Source: a virus
Direction: 5' to 3' (one strand)
DNA: 64,000 bases
IMG/VR virus record: IMGVR_UViG_3300024054_000269
Span: 1-64,000 of that record
Within the stretch, counting starts at the first letter, position 1, and every line of letters begins with the position of its first letter. Under the pieces are notes generated by a model. The model saw nothing but the letters and a program-made list of their open reading frames with translations. It was not told the origin of the DNA and searched no databases. Positions 622-30,383 of the stretch are shown piece after piece. The position numbers were made by a program, and so were the translations under genes.

Positions 622-3051
622 GTGGTAGCGTCGTTTATGTCTTTCGTTGCTCCAATTTCTGCGTGTTTAATAGTTAAAAATGAATCAGGTCAATTAAAAT
701 TTTGTCTTCAGTCTATTAGACCATATGTTGAAGAAATTGTTGTTGTTGATACTGGTTCTGTTGATAGTTCACAAGATATAGCTAAAGAATTTGCTGATAA
801 ATTTGAAATTTTTACTGATTGTAATGATGATCAAGGTCGAATAGTTTCTTTTGCTCTTGCTAGACAAAGAAGTTTTGATTTAGCTACTAAACCATGGTGT
901 TTTTGGGTTGATGGTGATGATGAAGTTGTTGGTGCAAATAAGCTAATCGACGTTGTTAACAAAGCTGAAAAAGAAAAAGACGGAAGACCAACAATGATAA
1001 TGCTTCCGTATGAATATTCACACGATGAAAATGGTAATGTTACTTGTTTGCATTATAGAGAAAGGATAATTAACCCAAAATCTGAATTTGAATGGAAGGG
1101 TCCTGTACATGAAGTTTGTTCTCCAAAATCATCTGCACAAGCATTGCAATCTGATGCTGTTAAAATTGTTCACAAAAGACAAAAGTCTGGGAAAGTCATA
1201 GAACCGAACAGAAACTTAAGAATTCTTAAATCTCATTATGAAAAAGTTGGCGAATCTGATGTTCGTCAATTGTATTACCTTGGTCTTGAATATGGCAATG
1301 CTGGCGATATTGGAAATTCTATTAAATTCCACAAAAGATATGTTGAGTTATCTGGTTGGGATGATGAGAAATTTTTAGCATGTATGAAAATATCAGAACA
1401 TTATCAAGGATTTGGCGATTACGAAAATGCCATTCAATGGGCATTAAAGGCTTTAACAGTTAGAGAAGGTTGGTCTGAGGCTTATTTTTCATTGGGTAAA
1501 AGTTATTATTTTATGGCTCAACGTGGTGGGCCAGAAGAAAAAAGAAATTGGGAAAAATGTGTACATTTTATTCGTCTTGGGTTGCAAATGCCACCGACTC
1601 GAACGGTTTTGTTTATAAATCCAATGGAACGTCAATTTGAAATGCACAGATTTTTGAATCTTGCACTTAACAAGATTGGTGATGTTCGAGGTGCATTGGA
1701 AAGTTGTGATACCGCTTTAAAAATTAAACCTGATTCATCCATTGAATTAAATAGAAATCTTTATGTTAGTTTTTTAGCCAAAAGTGACATAACAAACAAA
1801 ATCAATGACCTTGTTAATGCTGGTGGACTTAGTCAAGAAGTTAAAAATACTGTTCTTGACTTAATAAATTCGAATGATATTTCAAAAATAAACAACACAA
1901 AAATTGAACCAATTGCTGTTCCTTCAAATAAACTTGATATTGTTTTTTATGTTGGTCCAGGTGTTGAGCCATGGAATCCCGACATTATTAAGAAAAATGG
2001 TATCGGTGGATCAGAGACAGCTGTTTATGAGATGTCTCGCCGTTTAGTCAAATTTGGTCATTCAGTCCGTGTGTTTGGTCATTGTGAGAATATTGAAGGC
2101 AATTTTGATGGTGTTAATTATTTAAATTTTACTAAATATAGGAATATAAGCTGTGATGTTTTAATAACTTCACGAAGGCCACGTGCCATTGATGATGAAT
2201 TCAACGTAAGTTCTAAGGTTTCATTTTGTTGGGTACATGACATACATTGTGGCAACGATTTAAATCATTCGAGATCTTTAAGAATTGACAAGTTTTTAGT
2301 TCTTAGTAATTGGCATAGAGAATTTTTTTTAAACCACTATAAATTTATTCATCCAAGTCAAGTGATTACTACTAGAAATGGCATTGATTTGAGCAGATTT
2401 GATCATAAAATTCAAAGAAACCCGCATAGAGCTGTATATAGTTCTAGTCCTGATCGTGGTATGGAAGTAGTTACAAAAGTTTGGCCAAAAATTAGAGAAG
2501 TTATACCTGATGCTGAACTTCATTTGTTTTACGGATTTGAAACTTGGGAGTCATGCGCACGTTCTGCTGGTGACAACGGTCAATTAGACCTTATTCAACG
2601 TTTGAAACAAATGATAAAAGATTATGAAAAATATGGTGTGTATTATCATGGTAGAGTCGATCAAAATCAATTGGCTAAAGAATTTTTAGCAAGTGGTGTT
2701 TGGGCATACAGCACCTGGTTTTCTGAGACAAGTTGTCTAACTGCTATGGAAGCTCAGTGTGCTGGGCTTAGAATTGTTACTTCACCAATTGCTGCCTTGA
2801 ACGAAACAGTTGGTTCAAGGGGTAAAATGATACCAGGTGATTGGTTATCTGAAGAATATCAAAGGCAATTTACTGAGTCTGTTATTGAAGTCATGCTAAA
2901 ACCTGATAACGGTGACCGTTCTGAATTACAAGATTATGCAAAGAAACATTTCTGTATTGATAAATTGGCGTCTCAGTGGGATGAAATGTTTAGAAATGTA
3001 ATTGAGGAAATTTCAATAAACATTGTGCCGCCATACAAAGAGGCATGCTAA
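622..3051 (+). CDS. Multidomain glycosyltransferase: GT2 (GT-A) + TPR-like region + GT-B (GT4-like)
   Basis: ACLIVKNE / VVVDTGSVD / VDGDD / WKGPVHE GT2 motifs; helical TPR-like middle (YYLGLEY, EAYFSLG); C-terminal GIGGSE, YSSSPDRG, ETSCLTAMEA. Confidence 0.85.
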   Translation: MVASFMSFVAPISACLIVKNESGQLKFCLQSIRPYVEEIVVVDTGSVDSSQDIAKEFADKFEIFTDCNDDQGRIVSFALARQRSFDLATKPWCFWVDGDDEVVGANKLIDVVNKAEKEKDGRPTMIMLPYEYSHDENGNVTCLHYRERIINPKSEFEWKGPVHEVCSPKSSAQALQSDAVKIVHKRQKSGKVIEPNRNLRILKSHYEKVGESDVRQLYYLGLEYGNAGDIGNSIKFHKRYVELSGWDDEKFLACMKISEHYQGFGDYENAIQWALKALTVREGWSEAYFSLGKSYYFMAQRGGPEEKRNWEKCVHFIRLGLQMPPTRTVLFINPMERQFEMHRFLNLALNKIGDVRGALESCDTALKIKPDSSIELNRNLYVSFLAKSDITNKINDLVNAGGLSQEVKNTVLDLINSNDISKINNTKIEPIAVPSNKLDIVFYVGPGVEPWNPDIIKKNGIGGSETAVYEMSRRLVKFGHSVRVFGHCENIEGNFDGVNYLNFTKYRNISCDVLITSRRPRAIDDEFNVSSKVSFCWVHDIHCGNDLNHSRSLRIDKFLVLSNWHREFFLNHYKFIHPSQVITTRNGIDLSRFDHKIQRNPHRAVYSSSPDRGMEVVTKVWPKIREVIPDAELHLFYGFETWESCARSAGDNGQLDLIQRLKQMIKDYEKYGVYYHGRVDQNQLAKEFLASGVWAYSTWFSETSCLTAMEAQCAGLRIVTSPIAALNETVGSRGKMIPGDWLSEEYQRQFTESVIEVMLKPDNGDRSELQDYAKKHFCIDKLASQWDEMFRNVIEEISINIVPPYKEAC

Positions 3052-4022
3052 ACATGCGCATTTTAGTAACCGGTGGGGCTGGTTTTATAGGTTCTCATTT
3101 GTGCGAGGTTCTTGTTTCTCAAAATCATGATGTGATATGTATAGATAATTTTTTTACTTCACATCGTGAGAATATAAGCCATCTTTTTAAATTCAAGAAT
3201 TTTGAGTTTTTTAGGTATGATGTATGTGATCAATTTCACATAGAATGTAATCAAATTTATCACCTTGCTTGTCCAGCAAGTCCGGTACATTATCAAAAAA
3301 ACCCGGTACGTACTATAAAAACTTCTGTTCTTGGTACATTGAACGCCCTCGAATGTGCGCGTGATGTATCAGCCAGGTTAGTAATTGCTTCAACTTCTGA
3401 AATTTACGGTGATCCAACGGTTCACCCTCAAGTTGAGTCTTATCTTGGCAACGTTAACCCGATCGGTACTAGGTCATGTTATGATGAAGGAAAACGTGTT
3501 GGTGAAAGTCTTGCTTTTTCTTGGTCACAACAATATAAAACTGATGTAAGAATAGCAAGACTTTTTAACACGTTTGGTGAACGAATGGCCATGAAAGATG
3601 GTCGTTTGATACCAAATTTCATAACTCAAGCCATAGAAGGTAAAGATTTAACAGTTTATGGCGATGGAAAACAAACCAGGAGTTTTTGTTATGTTTCTGA
3701 TACTGTATCAGGATTAATTAAATTGATGAATGCTGATAGGATTTCAATCATAAGAAATTCTGAAGAAATTCCTGTGTTTAATATAGGTAATCCAGACGAA
3801 AGAACAATTTTAAACGTTGCGAATGATGTTGTCAGATCATTTGATAACAAAATTGGTGTGTGTTTTGAACCGTTGCCGTTAGATGACCCAAAACAACGGT
3901 GTCCTGATATAACCAAAGCAAAAGAATTATTGAATTGGTATCCAAAAATCAGTTACGAAGAAGGTATGAAGCGTACCGTTAATTGGTTCGTTGATTATAT
4001 TAAAAACCATAACAGTGTTTGA
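3045..4022 (+). CDS. uxs: UDP-glucuronate decarboxylase (UDP-xylose synthase)-like NAD-dependent epimerase/dehydratase
   Basis: GGAGFIG, HLACPASPVHYQKNPVRT, STSEIYGDP, RSCYDEGKR, DDPKQRCPDI; probable start ATG 3054. Confidence 0.88.
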   Translation: MLNMRILVTGGAGFIGSHLCEVLVSQNHDVICIDNFFTSHRENISHLFKFKNFEFFRYDVCDQFHIECNQIYHLACPASPVHYQKNPVRTIKTSVLGTLNALECARDVSARLVIASTSEIYGDPTVHPQVESYLGNVNPIGTRSCYDEGKRVGESLAFSWSQQYKTDVRIARLFNTFGERMAMKDGRLIPNFITQAIEGKDLTVYGDGKQTRSFCYVSDTVSGLIKLMNADRISIIRNSEEIPVFNIGNPDERTILNVANDVVRSFDNKIGVCFEPLPLDDPKQRCPDITKAKELLNWYPKISYEEGMKRTVNWFVDYIKNHNSV

Positions 4023-21591: not shown

Positions 21592-23553
21592 TCACGATGA
21601 AAGCGTTTCTAGTGCTGTTTCGTTGGCGTTTTGCGAGATATTCTTATTTGATTTCGTATTAACATTCCTTTCTTGGTTTTTCAGTTGTTTTTCAGATGGT
21701 CCGTTAGGCTTGCGAGAAACTCCTGGGTTTGGAGAACCATTTGATTGCTCGCAACGTTTCAACAAAATATGGCAGGCATTTTCATCTTGATCCCAATATT
21801 TTTCACAGTTTGAGCATTGGAGAACCAAAATTTCTTGATTTTTCCATTTATTAATGTGTCCGCACAAATGACATTCCCTGGTTGTATTCTCTGGATCAAC
21901 CTTTATAATATTTGGTTTACCAAAAGCTTGAATTAACTCTAAACGAAGCTCACCAGGTGATCCAATTGACATAATGCAATGCGTATAATCTTTCGGGTTT
22001 TCATTCTCTGGGGTCGAGTTTTTTATAAATTTTCTAAGATCCATATCCTCAACAACTAATGTTTTATATCTTTGTGATAAATTAGAAGCTATGTTTCTGT
22101 ACAAATGTTGACGATTCGATATTGTCTTTTTGCGTTGATCGGCTGCCCATTGAATCAAATGCCGGTCTTTACGGCGCCAAAGTTCTAAATAAAACAACAG
22201 TTGAGTGGCTTGGTCTTTAATCCCAGCCAAATTCGCCCACGTAAATATTTCGTCCTTTGTCGCAAATAAATCTAATTTAGACGAAAATCGATAATTTTTC
22301 CAATCAGAACAAATTTTAAAAATAAGATCTTTGTCTGATTCAGTTAACCATCGATTAACAATCGAGGCTAATTTGCCATGCATTCTCCACTGCGAGATAT
22401 TTAACGTTGCTTCTGGCATCCAATTTGGCAAACCTGAAAGTTTAGATTTAATGGCTTCTGACAAAATTGATAAAGCAACATTAAAAAATTCATCTGAGTA
22501 ACCAATTAATTTAGACGAATGCTCTAAAGCCGTTTGAATGTGATTAGGAACTAAAATTTCTTGCTTGAACCCATCATTTCCAACCACGAATCCGACTCTT
22601 ATACCATCAGGACGAACACGCCAACCAAGATCGAACGCTATTGCACCGCTAGTTGGCCTGACTTTTACGAATTCATTTGATTCGAGTGTTAGTTGTAGTT
22701 CAAATTCAGTATGAAGACCAATTCTACGGGTTGAAATCCAAGCCCAAGTAATGATTGCATCATCTGGCAATTTTCTATGCAAAGTTATTGGAAATTCGGC
22801 CCAAATTGGATTTCGTGACTTGTCTGAACCAACTCGAATTCTGACTTTTGACCTTGATAAAGGCGGCCTTACTTTTTGCTTACCATTTTTAATAAAATAA
22901 GCCTCAGGCGAAACCGGGTTGATCTGAATCATAGTTGATTTTTGATCAAAAATATCTTTTACGGTCGGTTTGTTTTGTAGCTGAACACCAATACGACCAT
23001 TTCCATCCCAACGGTGAAATTTTTGATCAGCTTGAGATGACTTGGAAGATTCTACCGCCTTTTCAATTAAGAGATAAGTTCCAAAATAAACTCCACATTT
23101 TGATCTAGCCAATTTAACTTTCTCAAGCATATCAGAAGTCAGTTTTTTATCGGCAGCTTCCAAAACTTCATTTGAATTTGCTTCATCACGTGCTTGTTTA
23201 AGTGACTCGTAAACTTGTTTCTTTTCGGCTTTCAAGTCGGAAATATGCTTTTGTAGTTCAAGATTTGAAACGCGTTTTCGAACTGATTTTCTAATTGACC
23301 TAAGTTCATCAATTGCTTTATCAAGCCTTTCTGAAACGTCTTTATATTTAACTTCAAATTCGGCTAAGTTTGGACACAATGAAGAACGCACAGTACGATA
23401 GGCTGAGCGTCTTTCTTGTTCTATTTGAACAAGATCGTTGTAATATTTATGTGCAAGTTTTAATTGCTCCCAAACAATTTGGGCATTTGAGGTTGGGCGT
23501 TTGCAACTAAATGACCAGACTCGGACTGGCAAATCTGACATTCTACGACGCAT
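21592..23553 (-). CDS. cas12m: Type V CRISPR effector, Cas12m (V-U1/C2c4)-like, TnpB-derived; RuvC triad appears intact
   Basis: LAHKYYNDLVQIE, FHRWDGNGRIGVQLQ, VRIRVGS..PIWAEFPITLHRKLP resemble V-U1 proteins; RuvC-I AFD308LGWR, RuvC-II VVE502DM, CxxC..CxxC zinc finger, RuvC-III QD590ENA; array 6 nt downstream. Confidence 0.82.
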   Translation of the reverse strand: MRRRMSDLPVRVWSFSCKRPTSNAQIVWEQLKLAHKYYNDLVQIEQERRSAYRTVRSSLCPNLAEFEVKYKDVSERLDKAIDELRSIRKSVRKRVSNLELQKHISDLKAEKKQVYESLKQARDEANSNEVLEAADKKLTSDMLEKVKLARSKCGVYFGTYLLIEKAVESSKSSQADQKFHRWDGNGRIGVQLQNKPTVKDIFDQKSTMIQINPVSPEAYFIKNGKQKVRPPLSRSKVRIRVGSDKSRNPIWAEFPITLHRKLPDDAIITWAWISTRRIGLHTEFELQLTLESNEFVKVRPTSGAIAFDLGWRVRPDGIRVGFVVGNDGFKQEILVPNHIQTALEHSSKLIGYSDEFFNVALSILSEAIKSKLSGLPNWMPEATLNISQWRMHGKLASIVNRWLTESDKDLIFKICSDWKNYRFSSKLDLFATKDEIFTWANLAGIKDQATQLLFYLELWRRKDRHLIQWAADQRKKTISNRQHLYRNIASNLSQRYKTLVVEDMDLRKFIKNSTPENENPKDYTHCIMSIGSPGELRLELIQAFGKPNIIKVDPENTTRECHLCGHINKWKNQEILVLQCSNCEKYWDQDENACHILLKRCEQSNGSPNPGVSRKPNGPSEKQLKNQERNVNTKSNKNISQNANETALETLSS

Positions 23554-26008: not shown

Positions 26009-26328
26009 AAACTATTGAAGTTGAAGATACCGATTTTGTGATTGTTTATAAAGGACCAATGGTTGGTTTAACTAAATGTTATATGGGTAATAAACAATTA
26101 TCATTGATAACCGCTTTGAGCTTTAGTACATTAGGTAAAACTTTTTACCCAGAAGTAAAAATAGAATTTGCTGGTAACACTGGTAATTTCGACCCTGACA
26201 TCGTTGGTAACCAAATAATAAATAGAATTTTTAAATTTTATGATATATTTCATAAACTTCCAGGTTTTGAAATAGAGTCACCAATTTTGGATGATTATGT
26301 CAAAACTAAAGAAGTAGTCGATTCATGA
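25993..26328 (+). CDS. Small hypothetical protein
   Basis: 111 aa ending KEVVDS. Confidence 0.55.
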   Translation: MEFILKTIEVEDTDFVIVYKGPMVGLTKCYMGNKQLSLITALSFSTLGKTFYPEVKIEFAGNTGNFDPDIVGNQIINRIFKFYDIFHKLPGFEIESPILDDYVKTKEVVDS

Positions 26329-26727
26329 TTCTAGCAATTCTTTAGTATTTCTTATATCTCGTAATTCTTTCTCAATCCTCAATAATTGTTCCGGTTCAAG
26401 TGCTTCAACTAAACCATATTTTGGTTTGTATTCTTTTTTAAATTTATACGTTGGTGTTTTACCAAACATGTTCGTGACAAATTCTTCTGGTATGTTGTAT
26501 TTTCTTGCGAAATTTAGTGACTTTATTCTTAGTTCTTTATGCATTTGTCTTCTAAATATTTGATATTTTTGCTTTTTTGGAAGTTTGTTTATGCGTTTGA
26601 ACACATTCCAGTGGCTTCCGTAAAAATCAACAATAAAATCAGAATTGTCAGATATCCATATTACATTTTCAACTTTTAGGATAAGGTTCTTTGTAATTAT
26701 CTTCAAATATTTTTTAGTATCATCCAC
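26323..26727 (-). CDS. Small hypothetical protein
   Basis: 134 aa ending KELLES; TATTAT-N5-GTG. Confidence 0.6.
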   Translation of the reverse strand: MDDTKKYLKIITKNLILKVENVIWISDNSDFIVDFYGSHWNVFKRINKLPKKQKYQIFRRQMHKELRIKSLNFARKYNIPEEFVTNMFGKTPTYKFKKEYKPKYGLVEALEPEQLLRIEKELRDIRNTKELLES

Positions 26728-26776
26728 ATAAAATAATACACATGAAAGTATTAAATTTTCTGGTGTATTGTAATGT

Positions 26777-26972
26777 GTCCCAGGCCAAACAGAGAAAGTC
26801 CTCTAAGGAGGTCGGTAAAGGTGGAACGAACGATCGAAAGATTGTTCATGGCACCACGCTCTTAAATCCTCAAACTCACTGGAGAGTCTAGGCAGCAACC
26901 ATTTGGTTCGCAGGTTAATAACCAAGTCTTGACTCAATGAAGGTGAGAAAAGCCGTAGTTTGGTCCTGGGAC
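26777..26972 (+). ncRNA. Unassigned structured ncRNA (~196 nt)
   Basis: GC-richer intergenic block; 5' GTCCCAGG-CCAAAC pairs with 3' GTTTGG-T-CCTGGGAC; internal GAACGATC-GAAA-GATTGTTC hairpin; TATTGT -10 exactly 5 nt before first paired G. Confidence 0.75.
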
Positions 26973-26973
26973 G

Positions 26974-27222
26974 CTATCTTCTCCAATTTGCATGTTTAAC
27001 AACTTCTTCATGTGTTTTGTTTTCTTGTTTACAAGCAGCTTCGTATATTATCTGTAATGATGTAATGACAAACCCGCTGGCTAATGACGCATGTATGCAT
27101 TTGTCCAAAACTTCCAGAACTTGAATAGCAGTTGGCGGGTTGGACCATTTACGAATTAATTTTTTCATTGAATCATCAAGCTGATCATCTGAAGCCTCCA
27201 ATAAGAGTTGACCGAAATTCAT
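26974..27222 (-). CDS. Small hypothetical protein
   Basis: 82 aa; TAAAAT-N5-ATG. Confidence 0.6.
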   Translation of the reverse strand: MNFGQLLLEASDDQLDDSMKKLIRKWSNPPTAIQVLEVLDKCIHASLASGFVITSLQIIYEAACKQENKTHEEVVKHANWRR

Positions 27223-28241: not shown

Positions 28242-28658
28242 TTGATGGAAATGTCAACAGAGTCTAAATTTGCATTCGTAGCAGCTAGAGTTGCCAACGT
28301 TGGTCTAACTATTGCCAGAAAAAACAATAAGAAAACAACGAAAAAAAACAAGAAACCGGTTAAACCAAAGCCAGAAAAACCTGTAAAAGTTTCAAAGCCA
28401 AAAATCTCTGAAACTGACATAACCACGCCTTTTACTGAATTTTCTTGCAGAGCTGATATTTCTCTTAGTATGGATTTTGAAGGTCAAGCTTCAAAACAAA
28501 ATTTGGTGAATGCTGTTAAAAATGAAATTAATGCAACTATTAAAGAAACTGCCGTGTCAATAGCACGTGGTTTTCAACTAAATTTAACAAATATAACCGT
28601 TGGTCCAATGACAGTGGAGTGTGCTGTTACTGATTCTTTGAGTGGTGGAGAAGAATGA
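28242..28658 (+). CDS. Hypothetical protein
   Basis: 138 aa, Lys/Pro-rich linker. Confidence 0.6.
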   Translation: MMEMSTESKFAFVAARVANVGLTIARKNNKKTTKKNKKPVKPKPEKPVKVSKPKISETDITTPFTEFSCRADISLSMDFEGQASKQNLVNAVKNEINATIKETAVSIARGFQLNLTNITVGPMTVECAVTDSLSGGEE

Positions 28659-29033: not shown

Positions 29034-30383
29034 ATGCCAGGTCCTAGGGACAGAGACGTAATTAGAGATGACGTACCTCTAATTCTTGAAAATGAAGACT
29101 CAGCATACCCATTACCACCACTAAATATCCAGTGTTTTTCTTCCTTTCAAAAGGGATCTTATGATATTAGATGGTCTGATCCATCGGTTTTGTGTTCTAA
29201 CACAAAATTCAGTCTCATAGGTGTTAATGTATATAGGAGTTTTGATTCTGAATTTGGCCCTTTTATTAGATTGACACCAGTTCCAATCGGAACAACATTC
29301 TATAGAGATAGAACTGAGGTTACGGTCGCTCTTCAAGAAGATGTATCTAATTCATTCATAGCGCGCGGTGCGACTAAAGATGTTTATGGTAGATACATTT
29401 TCAGAGTTAAAAATGTGCCTATATTTGTTGAGCAATACCCTGGCATAACTGATTGCGAAAATTTGAGTGTCTTTGTTACTGTCAACAATATACAAGCAAC
29501 AGTTTCAGGACTTGACTCGGCAACCGGTGAAATTGAATTAAAAAATACCTCAAATTATGACGTTGCAAACCATAAAAAAACTTCACCAATATTACCAATT
29601 AATAACAATGACGTTGTTCTTTGCACATACAAATATATAAAAAACTTTGTTAAAAGTGATCTGCACGCTAGAATATTTTATAGGATAACGTCTGTTGCTG
29701 TTGATAATGAAACTGGTGAATTGGTTGAGACACCGTTAGACAAATCAGCAAGAACCAATAATTTGGAAGTTGAAAAATTAGATTGGATTTGGAGGGAGGC
29801 TGTAAGAAGAAATTCTTGGATATTGGATCAAGGCGGCGAACGTGTGAAGGTCTTTCTCAGAAAGACTGTCGGTGTTTTGTGTGGTTGTGTAACTGATTTA
29901 CATAAACAAGGAAAATCTGACTGTTTAAATTGTTTTGGAACACGTTATATTGGCGGGTTCGAAGGCCCCTTTAATATAATAATAGCACCTGACGACGGAG
30001 AAAAAGCGGTACGCCAAACGAATAGAGGCAGAACGCAAGATCATTCGTATGATACTTGGACTTACCCGAGCCCATTATTATCACAACGTGATTTTTTGGT
30101 TAAATTGAATGGTGATAGATATGCAATAGGACCAGTTCGTATGCCAAGCAACAGGGGCATGCAACTTCAACAATTCTTTTCAATTTCATCATTAGATGAA
30201 GAAGATATAAGATTTAAAGTCCCAATAATTGATCCGTTTGATCTTCCATACCCAAGAACAATCCATGTTGACCGTCAACACAGTGACTCTTACCCAATTA
30301 TGACGGATGCTGATGCCATTCCAGATGAAAGAGAGATACGAGGAAACACAGTTACACATGTTAATCATATTAGACGGTCATAA
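29034..30383 (+). CDS. Putative neck/head-closure protein
   Basis: 449 aa; C-terminal CGC..DCLNCFGT and beta-barrel-like TWTYPSPLLSQRDFLV..RYAIG region; sits at start of structural block. Confidence 0.5.
   Translation: MPGPRDRDVIRDDVPLILENEDSAYPLPPLNIQCFSSFQKGSYDIRWSDPSVLCSNTKFSLIGVNVYRSFDSEFGPFIRLTPVPIGTTFYRDRTEVTVALQEDVSNSFIARGATKDVYGRYIFRVKNVPIFVEQYPGITDCENLSVFVTVNNIQATVSGLDSATGEIELKNTSNYDVANHKKTSPILPINNNDVVLCTYKYIKNFVKSDLHARIFYRITSVAVDNETGELVETPLDKSARTNNLEVEKLDWIWREAVRRNSWILDQGGERVKVFLRKTVGVLCGCVTDLHKQGKSDCLNCFGTRYIGGFEGPFNIIIAPDDGEKAVRQTNRGRTQDHSYDTWTYPSPLLSQRDFLVKLNGDRYAIGPVRMPSNRGMQLQQFFSISSLDEEDIRFKVPIIDPFDLPYPRTIHVDRQHSDSYPIMTDADAIPDEREIRGNTVTHVNHIRRS

Follow-up and report, generated by a model that had tools for sequence, protein, structure and literature searches.

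What is the compact, strongly folded stretch of about 200 nt that lies between two small genes at positions 26777–26972 of this phage, and on which strand does it act? The DNA analysed here, referred to as the window, covers positions 1–64,000 of an IMG/VR record of 182,302 bp. A previous sequence-only reading of the window had taken the stretch for a discrete functional RNA with its own promoter, and could not assign it to a family. We refer to the stretch as the element and to its two neighbours as ORF A and ORF B. Four answers were weighed: an RNA gene on the + strand, a control element within a − strand mRNA of the two neighbouring genes, a functionless insert, and coding sequence.

Genomic setting of the element

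As the 182,302-bp record is about 40% complete, it belongs to a huge phage, with a G+C content of about 36%. The structured element is surrounded by small orphan genes, and its immediate neighbours encode proteins of 82–147 aa. To its left, a Cas12f/TnpB-type effector is encoded on the − strand (21592–23553), with two small CRISPR arrays near it, and to its right the conserved genes start at 28242. We collected 23 related huge-phage loci through the 449-aa protein encoded at 29034–30383 (46–58% identity), and synteny with these loci was found rightwards from 28242 only. Thus, the element is located within a hypervariable accessory island.

ORF A (26974–27222, − strand, 82 aa) lies outside the RNA. 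A phmmer search of the A–B read-through product against 1.84 billion representative proteins retrieved 237 relatives, which matched residues 1–83. Nearly all of them are stand-alone proteins of 82–95 aa, at which the alignment ends at their own C-terminus with W-R invariant; the family ends at a conserved A.WR. As judged from these alignments, ORF A is complete and belongs to a family of small proteins (82–95 aa) that is widespread. ORF B (26323–26727, − strand) encodes 134 aa from a GTG, and its frame is open back to 26802. The encoded protein is basic and helix-turn-helix-like, and ORF B is possibly a regulated gene. It showed no relative but itself in the search against the 1.84 billion representatives and in further protein searches, and a protein atlas returned nothing for ORF A or ORF B. 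No Shine-Dalgarno-like sequence was detected for ORF B.

Read on the − strand, the element begins 2 nt past the stop codon of ORF A. ORF A and ORF B share one frame, which is interrupted between them by two TAG codons only. We also examined 26 other loci with an A homologue, mostly from huge phages; in these the next gene begins at or over the stop codon of A, and none of the 26 has a structured insert after the A homologue.

Predicted fold

The minimum free energy (MFE) of the element was −71.0 kcal/mol, compared to −51.4 ± 4.6 for 200 dinucleotide shuffles, none of which folded as well (z −4.28). After correction for G+C content, it ranked 5th of 1821 segments of 200 nt from the 182-kb genome (z −3.0); among the segments ranked above it, at least the one at 110975 is a plain long hairpin. 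The G+C content of the element is 0.455–0.485, against 0.28–0.30 in its flanks, in agreement with the earlier remark that it is GC-richer than its surroundings; a GC island in an AT-rich genome is typical for structural RNA genes.

The MFE fold has 59 pairs (26777 being base 1). All helices and motifs listed in the sequence-only reading, including the terminal helix, CCTC-TAAG-GAGG and the GAAA hairpin, were found in their places; GAGAAAGUCC indeed follows the 5′ strand, and GAGAAAAGCC precedes the 3′ strand. The terminal helix, P1, pairs 26777–26790 with 26958–26972 over 14 bp, with U26964 bulged. Two further pairs that were new with respect to that reading, U26776·G26973 and G26775–C26974, lengthen it to 16 bp (5′ strand 26775–26790, pair probability 0.99). 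The outermost base, C26974, doubles as the last base of the stop codon of ORF A on the other strand.

P1 opens into a purine-rich junction (26791–26819), composed of AGAGAAAGU, the weak hairpin CCUC-UAAG-GAGG (P2, 26800–26811) and UCGGUAAA. Half-buried in P2 is UAAGGAGGU (26804–26812), a complete Shine-Dalgarno 9-mer that occurs nowhere else in the 182 kb. The P4 hairpin follows at 26820–26855, where GGUG/CACC (26820–26823 with 26852–26855) and a 4 × 4 internal loop, GAAC/AUGG, enclose GAACGAUC-GAAA-GAUUGUUC, an 8-bp stem with one G·U, a pair probability of 1.0 and a GAAA tetraloop at 26836–26839. A GNRA loop on a stem of at least 4 bp was found in 85 of 2500 shuffles. The 19-nt linker ACGCUCUUAAAUCCUCAAA (26856–26874) is predicted to be unpaired and leads to the P5 domain (26875–26947), closed by CUCACU/GGUGAG (26875–26880 with 26942–26947). 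Inside P5 lie a kink-turn-like loop (GGA opposite AAUGAA), the helix GAGUC/GACUC (26884–26888 with 26931–26935) and AGGC/GUCU; the domain ends in a three-way junction bearing the hairpins AACC-AUUU-GGUU and GGUU-AAU-AACC. The AAAAGCCGUA junction and the 3′ strand of P1, with its bulged U, complete the fold (26948–26974).

Pair probabilities were 0.91–1.0 for P1, P4a, P5 and P5a–d, and 0.74 for P4 (GGUG/CACC). They were low for the P2 hairpin (CCUC/GAGG, 0.42) and for the 4-bp P3 (CGGU/GCCG, 0.10), so the region from P1 to P4 is the uncertain part of the fold.

A candidate kink-turn and the strand of the element

On the + strand, the loop between P5 and P5a is formed by 5′-GACUC-AAU-GAA-GGUGAG (26931–26947) opposite 5′-CUCACU-GGA-GAGUC (26875–26888). 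It comprises a 5-bp Watson-Crick C stem (GACUC/GAGUC), a 3-nt bulge (AAU), the G·A and A·G pairs with A·G at 3b·3n, and an NC stem (GGUGAG/CUCACU) with C-G at −1b·−1n, and both stems have pair probabilities of at least 0.94. As predicted, this loop fits the standard kink-turn consensus given in PMC5061560, and it does so on the + strand only. A kink-turn formed here would bend the helix axis to an included angle of about 50°, with A-minor contacts.

When the pattern was defined formally and sought in MFE folds, it appeared in 2 of 2500 dinucleotide shuffles and, combined with a GNRA hairpin, in none of the 2500. Among 3642 real 200-nt segments of the genome, counted on both strands, 3 had the pattern, and it was absent from the fold of the element's own − strand. 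The p-value for the kink-turn is post hoc, as several motif types had been tried first, and stands at about 0.01 after a rough tenfold correction. A·G at 3b·3n is the variant that folds best in Mg2+ without protein, and it is present in the natural Kt-7 and in 60% of the SAM-I k-turns (PMC4382518). In the 182 kb, which represent about 40% of the genome, no gene for an L7Ae-family protein was found. A turn of the A·G type does not require such a protein.

Fold energies were also compared between the strands. For a 207-nt piece, the z-scores were equal on both strands (−4.28 on + and −4.38 on −). Over 196 nt, the + strand reached −71.0 kcal/mol and the − strand −65.9, with the mirrored + strand structure at −63.0 on the − strand; in a 321-nt context, the values were −95.2 (z −4.19) on the + strand against −85.6 (z −3.40) on the − strand. 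Six G·U pairs of the + strand (four in the MFE fold, one in the P1 extension and one in an outer stem described below) become A·C mismatches on the − strand, whereas the reverse case, a − strand G·U lost on the + strand, was found once only. The loop of the 8-bp stem reads GAAA on the + strand and UUUC on the − strand. Taken as a prediction, the + strand is favoured by the kink-turn, the GAAA loop, the six G·U pairs and a folding better by 5–10 kcal/mol.

The outer inverted repeat and a possible A–B mRNA

Outside P1, a second repeat pairs 26730–26746 with 27007–27023. Its arms are Watson-Crick complementary at 15 of 17 positions, with one additional U·G on the + strand; none of the 400 shuffled sequences scored as high, and of 3000 placements drawn at random from this genome 3 did (p ~0.001), and the stem is present in the + strand centroid fold. 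Only the gapless 15/17 measure is unusual, since the RNAduplex energy of the flanks, with loops allowed freely, was ordinary against the genomic background. The right arm lies inside ORF A, over the codons of the conserved ..NKTHE.., and the left arm, read on the − strand, occupies positions −3 to −19 before the GTG of ORF B.

The placement of these arms speaks for a different reading, in which the element would act in cis on the − strand, as an intercistronic element of an A–B mRNA that controls ORF B. It is proposed that the outer stem closes the initiation region of ORF B until a ribosome translating ORF A opens it, and that P1 and the core bring the stop codon of A, at the base of P1, near the start of B, for coupling or re-initiation across a knot of 200 nt. 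The long duplex could double as an RNase III site, like those of the T7 early genes. Such an mRNA would agree with the − strand orientation of both genes, with the 2 nt between the stop codon of A and the element, and with an ORF B that is devoid of a Shine-Dalgarno-like sequence and has its frame open back into the element. In the 26 other phages, the next gene is placed as expected if it were coupled to A, and the − strand fold of the element is itself far beyond chance (z −4.38). In addition, a promoter-like site was detected upstream of ORF A on the − strand. On the other hand, the kink-turn, the GAAA loop and the six wobble pairs are lost on this strand, and the fold is weaker in energy and, in the 321-nt context, in z-score. 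A simple hairpin would suffice for such a control, which leaves a 59-bp, multi-junction GC island unexplained; a P1 of 14–16 bp is too stable for a switch helix, and nothing like it was found at any other A locus. We regard control of ORF B from the − strand as the main alternative to a + strand RNA, though as unlikely, at about one part in four of our belief.

Transcription signals and coding potential

Since the element had been described as having its own promoter, with the +1 exactly at the first paired base, we scanned its upstream region on the + strand. The consensus scan found no sigma-70-like site just upstream, where the best fit by eye is about 8 of 12, and no terminator was found after the element on this strand. 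The proposed start at the first paired base was likewise unsupported; with its outer stem, the element looks more like a piece excised from a longer transcript. The upstream region has no recurrent motif that would mark the element, and no promoter motif of the phage could be defined. Two candidate words were rejected, namely AATTTTCTGG, which recurs within coding sequence, where it reads K-F-S-G, and TTGTAA[AT], which is 1.85-fold enriched in non-coding DNA only and has no shared context.

Could the element be coding? Three forms of this were considered: a 49-aa ATG frame on the + strand (26742–26891), a frame of 14 codons, and a read-through or split gene joining A and B on the − strand. The first was called as a gene on a contig in ENA and had no relative among 5.8 billion proteins; thus, the earlier statement that no credible ORF is present holds in substance, with the exception that one gene caller did annotate this frame. 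The second has in its favour that UAAGGAGGU is unique in the genome and that a GUG at 26821, nine nt after it, opens the 14 codons. As for the third, a − strand frame of 57 codons between A and B is in phase with both, with TAG stops only, but this middle stretch had no protein relative (phmmer against the 1.84 billion representatives), ORF B had none either, and a G+C content of 0.455–0.485 is foreign to flanks of 0.28–0.30.

The family of ORF A bears most directly on an intron or a split gene. Since its 237 relatives are stand-alone and end where A ends, at the A.WR, A is a whole gene and not an exon, and the element is no intron or recoded segment. Read-through or recoding of TAG was rejected as well, as reading TAG as sense barely lengthens the frames genome-wide and the sole tRNA in the 182 kb is a tRNA-Gly, which leaves no suppressor. 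A protein-coding role in any of these forms is, in our judgement, very improbable.

Search for homologues and the possibility of a relic

No match was obtained with Rfam 15 at gathering thresholds over the whole 64-kb window. With the cutoff relaxed to E ≤ 10 over 26600–27150, only a chance match to a snoRNA appeared, outside the element. ARAGORN detected no tRNA, tmRNA or tRNA-like structure. The element had no blastn match among GenBank phages and plasmids, and blastn and nhmmer searches against the 23 related huge-phage loci gave chance words only.

A covariance model, R1, was built from the single sequence of the element and its fold. It retrieved nothing from 35 whole related phage records (~6 Mb; eight of them at least 90% complete), nothing from about 75 loci that included the related loci and those with A homologues, and, apart from the element itself, nothing from the 182 kb of this phage. 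Larger collections were covered by pattern scans in which loops and junctions were fixed and helices left free; as these require about 17–20 exact bases, distant relatives are missed. The IMG/VR scans gave only chance matches, which R1 turned down. A scan of 241 million metagenome records gave 16 matches, all unrelated according to R1 and by eye, and a scan of the 185,579 species genomes of GTDB gave 3 chance matches, also turned down by R1. Eight of the 16 metagenome matches represent one conserved gene end before a 'MAYPTV..' protein. A 16-kb ENA contig that carries ORF B is identical over 301 bases and so offers no variation. A literature search for structured RNAs in huge or jumbo phages yielded no relevant report.

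No homologue was thus found in any of the collections searched. The absence of homologues is weak evidence against function, because ORF B is equally orphan, the closest phages are 46–58% identical in the conserved protein, and the exact-pattern scans are blind to distant relatives.

A functionless relic was considered as well, a foreign, GC-richer insert that this lineage alone would have received between A and B. Such an insert might derive from part of a structured-RNA gene or represent a miniature inverted-repeat element, for which the 14–16 bp of P1 would be the terminal inverted repeats. In line with an insertion, the element is unique to this phage and starts and ends in inverted repeats, and its base composition sets it apart from the flanks. 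In addition, synteny with the related phages stops at 28242, to the right of the element, and at other loci the A homologue is directly followed by the next gene. However, it is present in one copy in the 182 kb and was found in none of the collections scanned, and its ends show no target-site duplication. The interior is not one long hairpin; it has perfect helices of its own, together with the kink-turn and the GNRA loop, and none of its parts gave a match to rRNA, to an intron or to an Rfam model. In addition, the outer repeat involves the conserved coding sequence of A, so that the left arm looks as if selected to match it. We consider a relic improbable.

Comparison with known RNA systems

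The predicted kink-turn has the same 3-nt bulge, the same G·A/A·G pairs, A·G at 3b·3n and C-G at −1b·−1n as the k-turns of the ribosomal Kt-7 and of the SAM-I, lysine, glycine and cobalamin riboswitches. The layout is shared as well, with a k-turn on the helix to a distal domain, an RNA closed by P1 and A-rich junctions, the kink of our element being predicted from its sequence. In RNAs of this layout, the k-turn folds the distal arm back onto the core (PMC4382518, PMC5061560, PMC4316175). The element differs from a riboswitch in that no Rfam riboswitch model matched it at E ≤ 10, in that no gene of the + strand follows it (A being antisense), and in its P1 of 14–16 bp, which is far longer than that of a switching riboswitch.

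A 6S-like polymerase decoy had been among the functions suggested earlier. Like 6S RNA, the element measures about 190–200 nt, has a long stem that joins its 5′ and 3′ ends, and would be a stable non-coding RNA. The rod shape of 6S RNA, with a large bubble at its centre, differs from the nested three-way junctions and kink-turn predicted here; this architecture contradicts the suggestion, and neither the 6S models nor any others in Rfam were matched at E ≤ 10.

With RNase P RNA, the element shares a size near that of type T and, right after P1, the CR-I-like AGAGAAAGUCC (26791–26801), which resembles the universal CR-I string of RNase P, GAGGAAAGUCC, at 10 of 11 positions. Archaeal RNase P RNAs also carry k-turns. 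RNase P was nevertheless rejected, as P4 requires CR-I to pair with a distant CR-V (..GGCUUA), for which the element has no counterpart (no GGCUU or GGACUU downstream), and the A/B, archaeal and type T models were unmatched at E ≤ 10.

Other candidates were rejected on account of missing partners. The paired ends recall a retron, but an RVT_1 domain is absent from the 182 kb and the neighbours encode only 82–147 aa. A bacterial Y RNA (YrlA-like) was dismissed, since the TROVE domain of a Ro60/Rsr partner was not detected in the 182 kb (~40% of the genome), Rfam gave no match and nothing in the element is tRNA-like. As for a tracrRNA of the neighbouring Cas12m locus, the best match of the element to either of the two arrays measures 8 nt (E 1.5) and reads like the crRNA repeat itself instead of complementing it. 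The 19-nt linker, tried as an antisense seed, found no complementary site in the phage genome, with up to 4 mismatches allowed.

The outer stem and P1 together resemble the RNase III stems of rRNA precursors and T7 early mRNA, with which they have in common a long irregular flanking duplex and an intercistronic position. Whereas each T7 RNase III site is one hairpin of some 60 nt, the duplex here encloses a folded core of 170 nt, and its cleavage is putative. For the − strand alternative alone, a further comparison can be made with devices of coupling or bypass, such as the MS2 coat–replicase pairing, the T4 gene 60 hop and the CaMV ribosome shunt. What is similar is that the first ORF stops at the foot of a stable structure and that the start region of the next ORF pairs with coding sequence lying before it; with about 250 nt, the spacing far exceeds the bacterial cases of coupling or bypass known to us.

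A proposed + strand RNA excised from a longer precursor

Our preferred reading, to which we give a little less than an even chance, is that the element is a lineage-specific, self-folding RNA of the + strand that is excised from a longer precursor. Transcription of the precursor would start to the left of the outer repeat (before 26730), whose arms would then form one long irregular duplex together with P1. This duplex would either be cut by enzymes of the RNase III type or block exonucleases, and the capped RNA left over would measure about 200 nt. The A·G at 3b·3n would allow the kink-turn to fold in Mg2+ without protein, bending the distal P5a–d domain back to lie against the A-rich junctions and the linker, so that a compact tertiary fold results. 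The compact RNA may act in trans, as a scaffold, decoy or sponge for a protein of the host or the phage, and its gene would be placed in the hypervariable accessory island beside the phage's Cas12m locus.

In favour of this + strand RNA we also count that the frames inside the element have no relatives. Against it we count the promoter and terminator missing from the + strand, the missing homologues, the equal z-scores of the 207-nt piece and the post hoc nature of the kink-turn. We further count against it that both flanking genes lie on the − strand, where co-transcription of A and B, if assumed, would copy the − strand of the element, and that no L7Ae-family protein was found in the 182 kb. 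A slim share of probability is kept for readings that we have not thought of.

The earlier proposal of a discrete functional RNA is accordingly upheld in part: the robust fold, the kink-turn, the GNRA loop on an 8-bp stem and the six G·U pairs agree with it, whereas its promoter and the 6S-like version of it are not upheld. The element is real, unusual and in no known family, and it is better supported as an RNA than before, owing to the kink-turn, the strand asymmetry and the outer stem. Perhaps it is the founding member, from a single lineage, of a new class of trans-acting phage RNAs of about 200 nt with a kink-turn, serving as a decoy, a scaffold or possibly a ribozyme. This wider claim, which includes the processing stem, the accessory island by the Cas12m system and a target protein of the host or of a rival phage, is more doubtful, and we put it forward tentatively.

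As a single sequence without relatives, the element has its value as a well-defined candidate rather than as an established finding. Huge phages are known for their tRNAs, tmRNAs and CRISPR systems, but reports of stand-alone structured RNAs from them are, to our knowledge, very rare. Should the − strand alternative be true, the locus would represent an unusually long-range coupling of the translation of two phage genes. If, on the other hand, the element is a true RNA gene, it would provide a compact natural k-turn RNA to study, and it would mean that the hypervariable islands of these phages hold lineage-specific structured RNAs besides orphan proteins.

Proteins encoded around the structured element

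ORF A (26974-27222, minus strand), which borders the GC-rich predicted structured RNA at 26777-26972, belongs to a widespread family with 237 relatives at E ≤ 0.001, stand-alone proteins of 82-95 aa, many of which are encoded on huge-phage contigs of 100-455 kb. Residues W26, L36 and D40 and a C-terminal W-R are invariant in the family, for which no Pfam or PHROG model was found. A few members reach 250-280 aa and carry the ORF A-like domain at their N-terminus.

ORF A and ORF B (26323-26727, minus strand), on the other side of the element, share one reading frame across 26323-27222, and the 57 codons which separate them are interrupted solely by two TAG codons (26976-74 and 26805-03). An intron or a recoding event joining both ORFs was considered and rejected, the common frame being a coincidence.

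Further along, a 138-aa protein (28242-28658, plus strand) is conserved beside the 449-aa core gene (29034-30383) in 16 related phage loci; it showed a weak, sub-threshold match (E 0.005) to PF02940, the mRNA triphosphatase (triphosphate tunnel) family.

Shine-Dalgarno signals in the element and upstream of genes

At 26804-26812 (plus strand) the element contains UAAGGAGGU, and nowhere else in the 182-kb record does a complete 9-nt Shine-Dalgarno sequence occur. A GUG (up to 26823) located 9 nt 3′ of this string starts a 14-codon frame which ends at a TAA (26863-65, plus strand). Shine-Dalgarno signals of the other phage genes are weak and partial, with GAGG present in 13% of upstream regions vs 2% of the background.

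Other folded and conserved sites

The most extreme folding site of the genome (z -5.3) lies outside the window, at ~111070-111110 of the same phage record, where a perfect 17-bp hairpin (AAAGCCCUGAUAGGAG .. CUCCUAUCAGGGCUUU) has U/A runs on either side. It looks like a bidirectional intrinsic terminator and shows the form that such a terminator takes in this phage; no terminator of this kind was detected at 26777-26972. Second in the genome by GC-corrected folding energy (z -4.6) was the segment holding a long stem of ~22 pairs at 3490-3580 (plus strand). This stem lies within an intact ORF (3045-4022), presumably an SDR-type sugar epimerase/decarboxylase-like protein, as judged from the GAGFIG and GDGKQTRSFCYVSD strings alone.

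Among the metagenome contigs matched in the pattern scan for homologues of the element, eight (L054, L055, L057, L061, L063, L066, L068 and L069) had a conserved block in common, ..GAGAGA.CGA.CC..GGATGCC.. AGAGAAAGTC..TCGGTAAAGG, positioned ~25-40 nt upstream of a gene whose product starts with MAYPTV. The block was rejected as a homologue of the element, to which it is unrelated, its match to the pattern being a chance one. It represents either a conserved gene end or a conserved leader.

Putative regulatory 8-mers

In the upstream regions of ~92 genes of the phage's own genome with a spacer of at least 40 nt, the 8-mers AATACATT/ATACATTT and TGTAATTT/GTAAATTT/TTGTAAAT were enriched 6- to 12-fold within 100 nt upstream of the gene. 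No consistent motif of greater length was extracted from this set. These 8-mers may be pieces of a phage promoter or operator.
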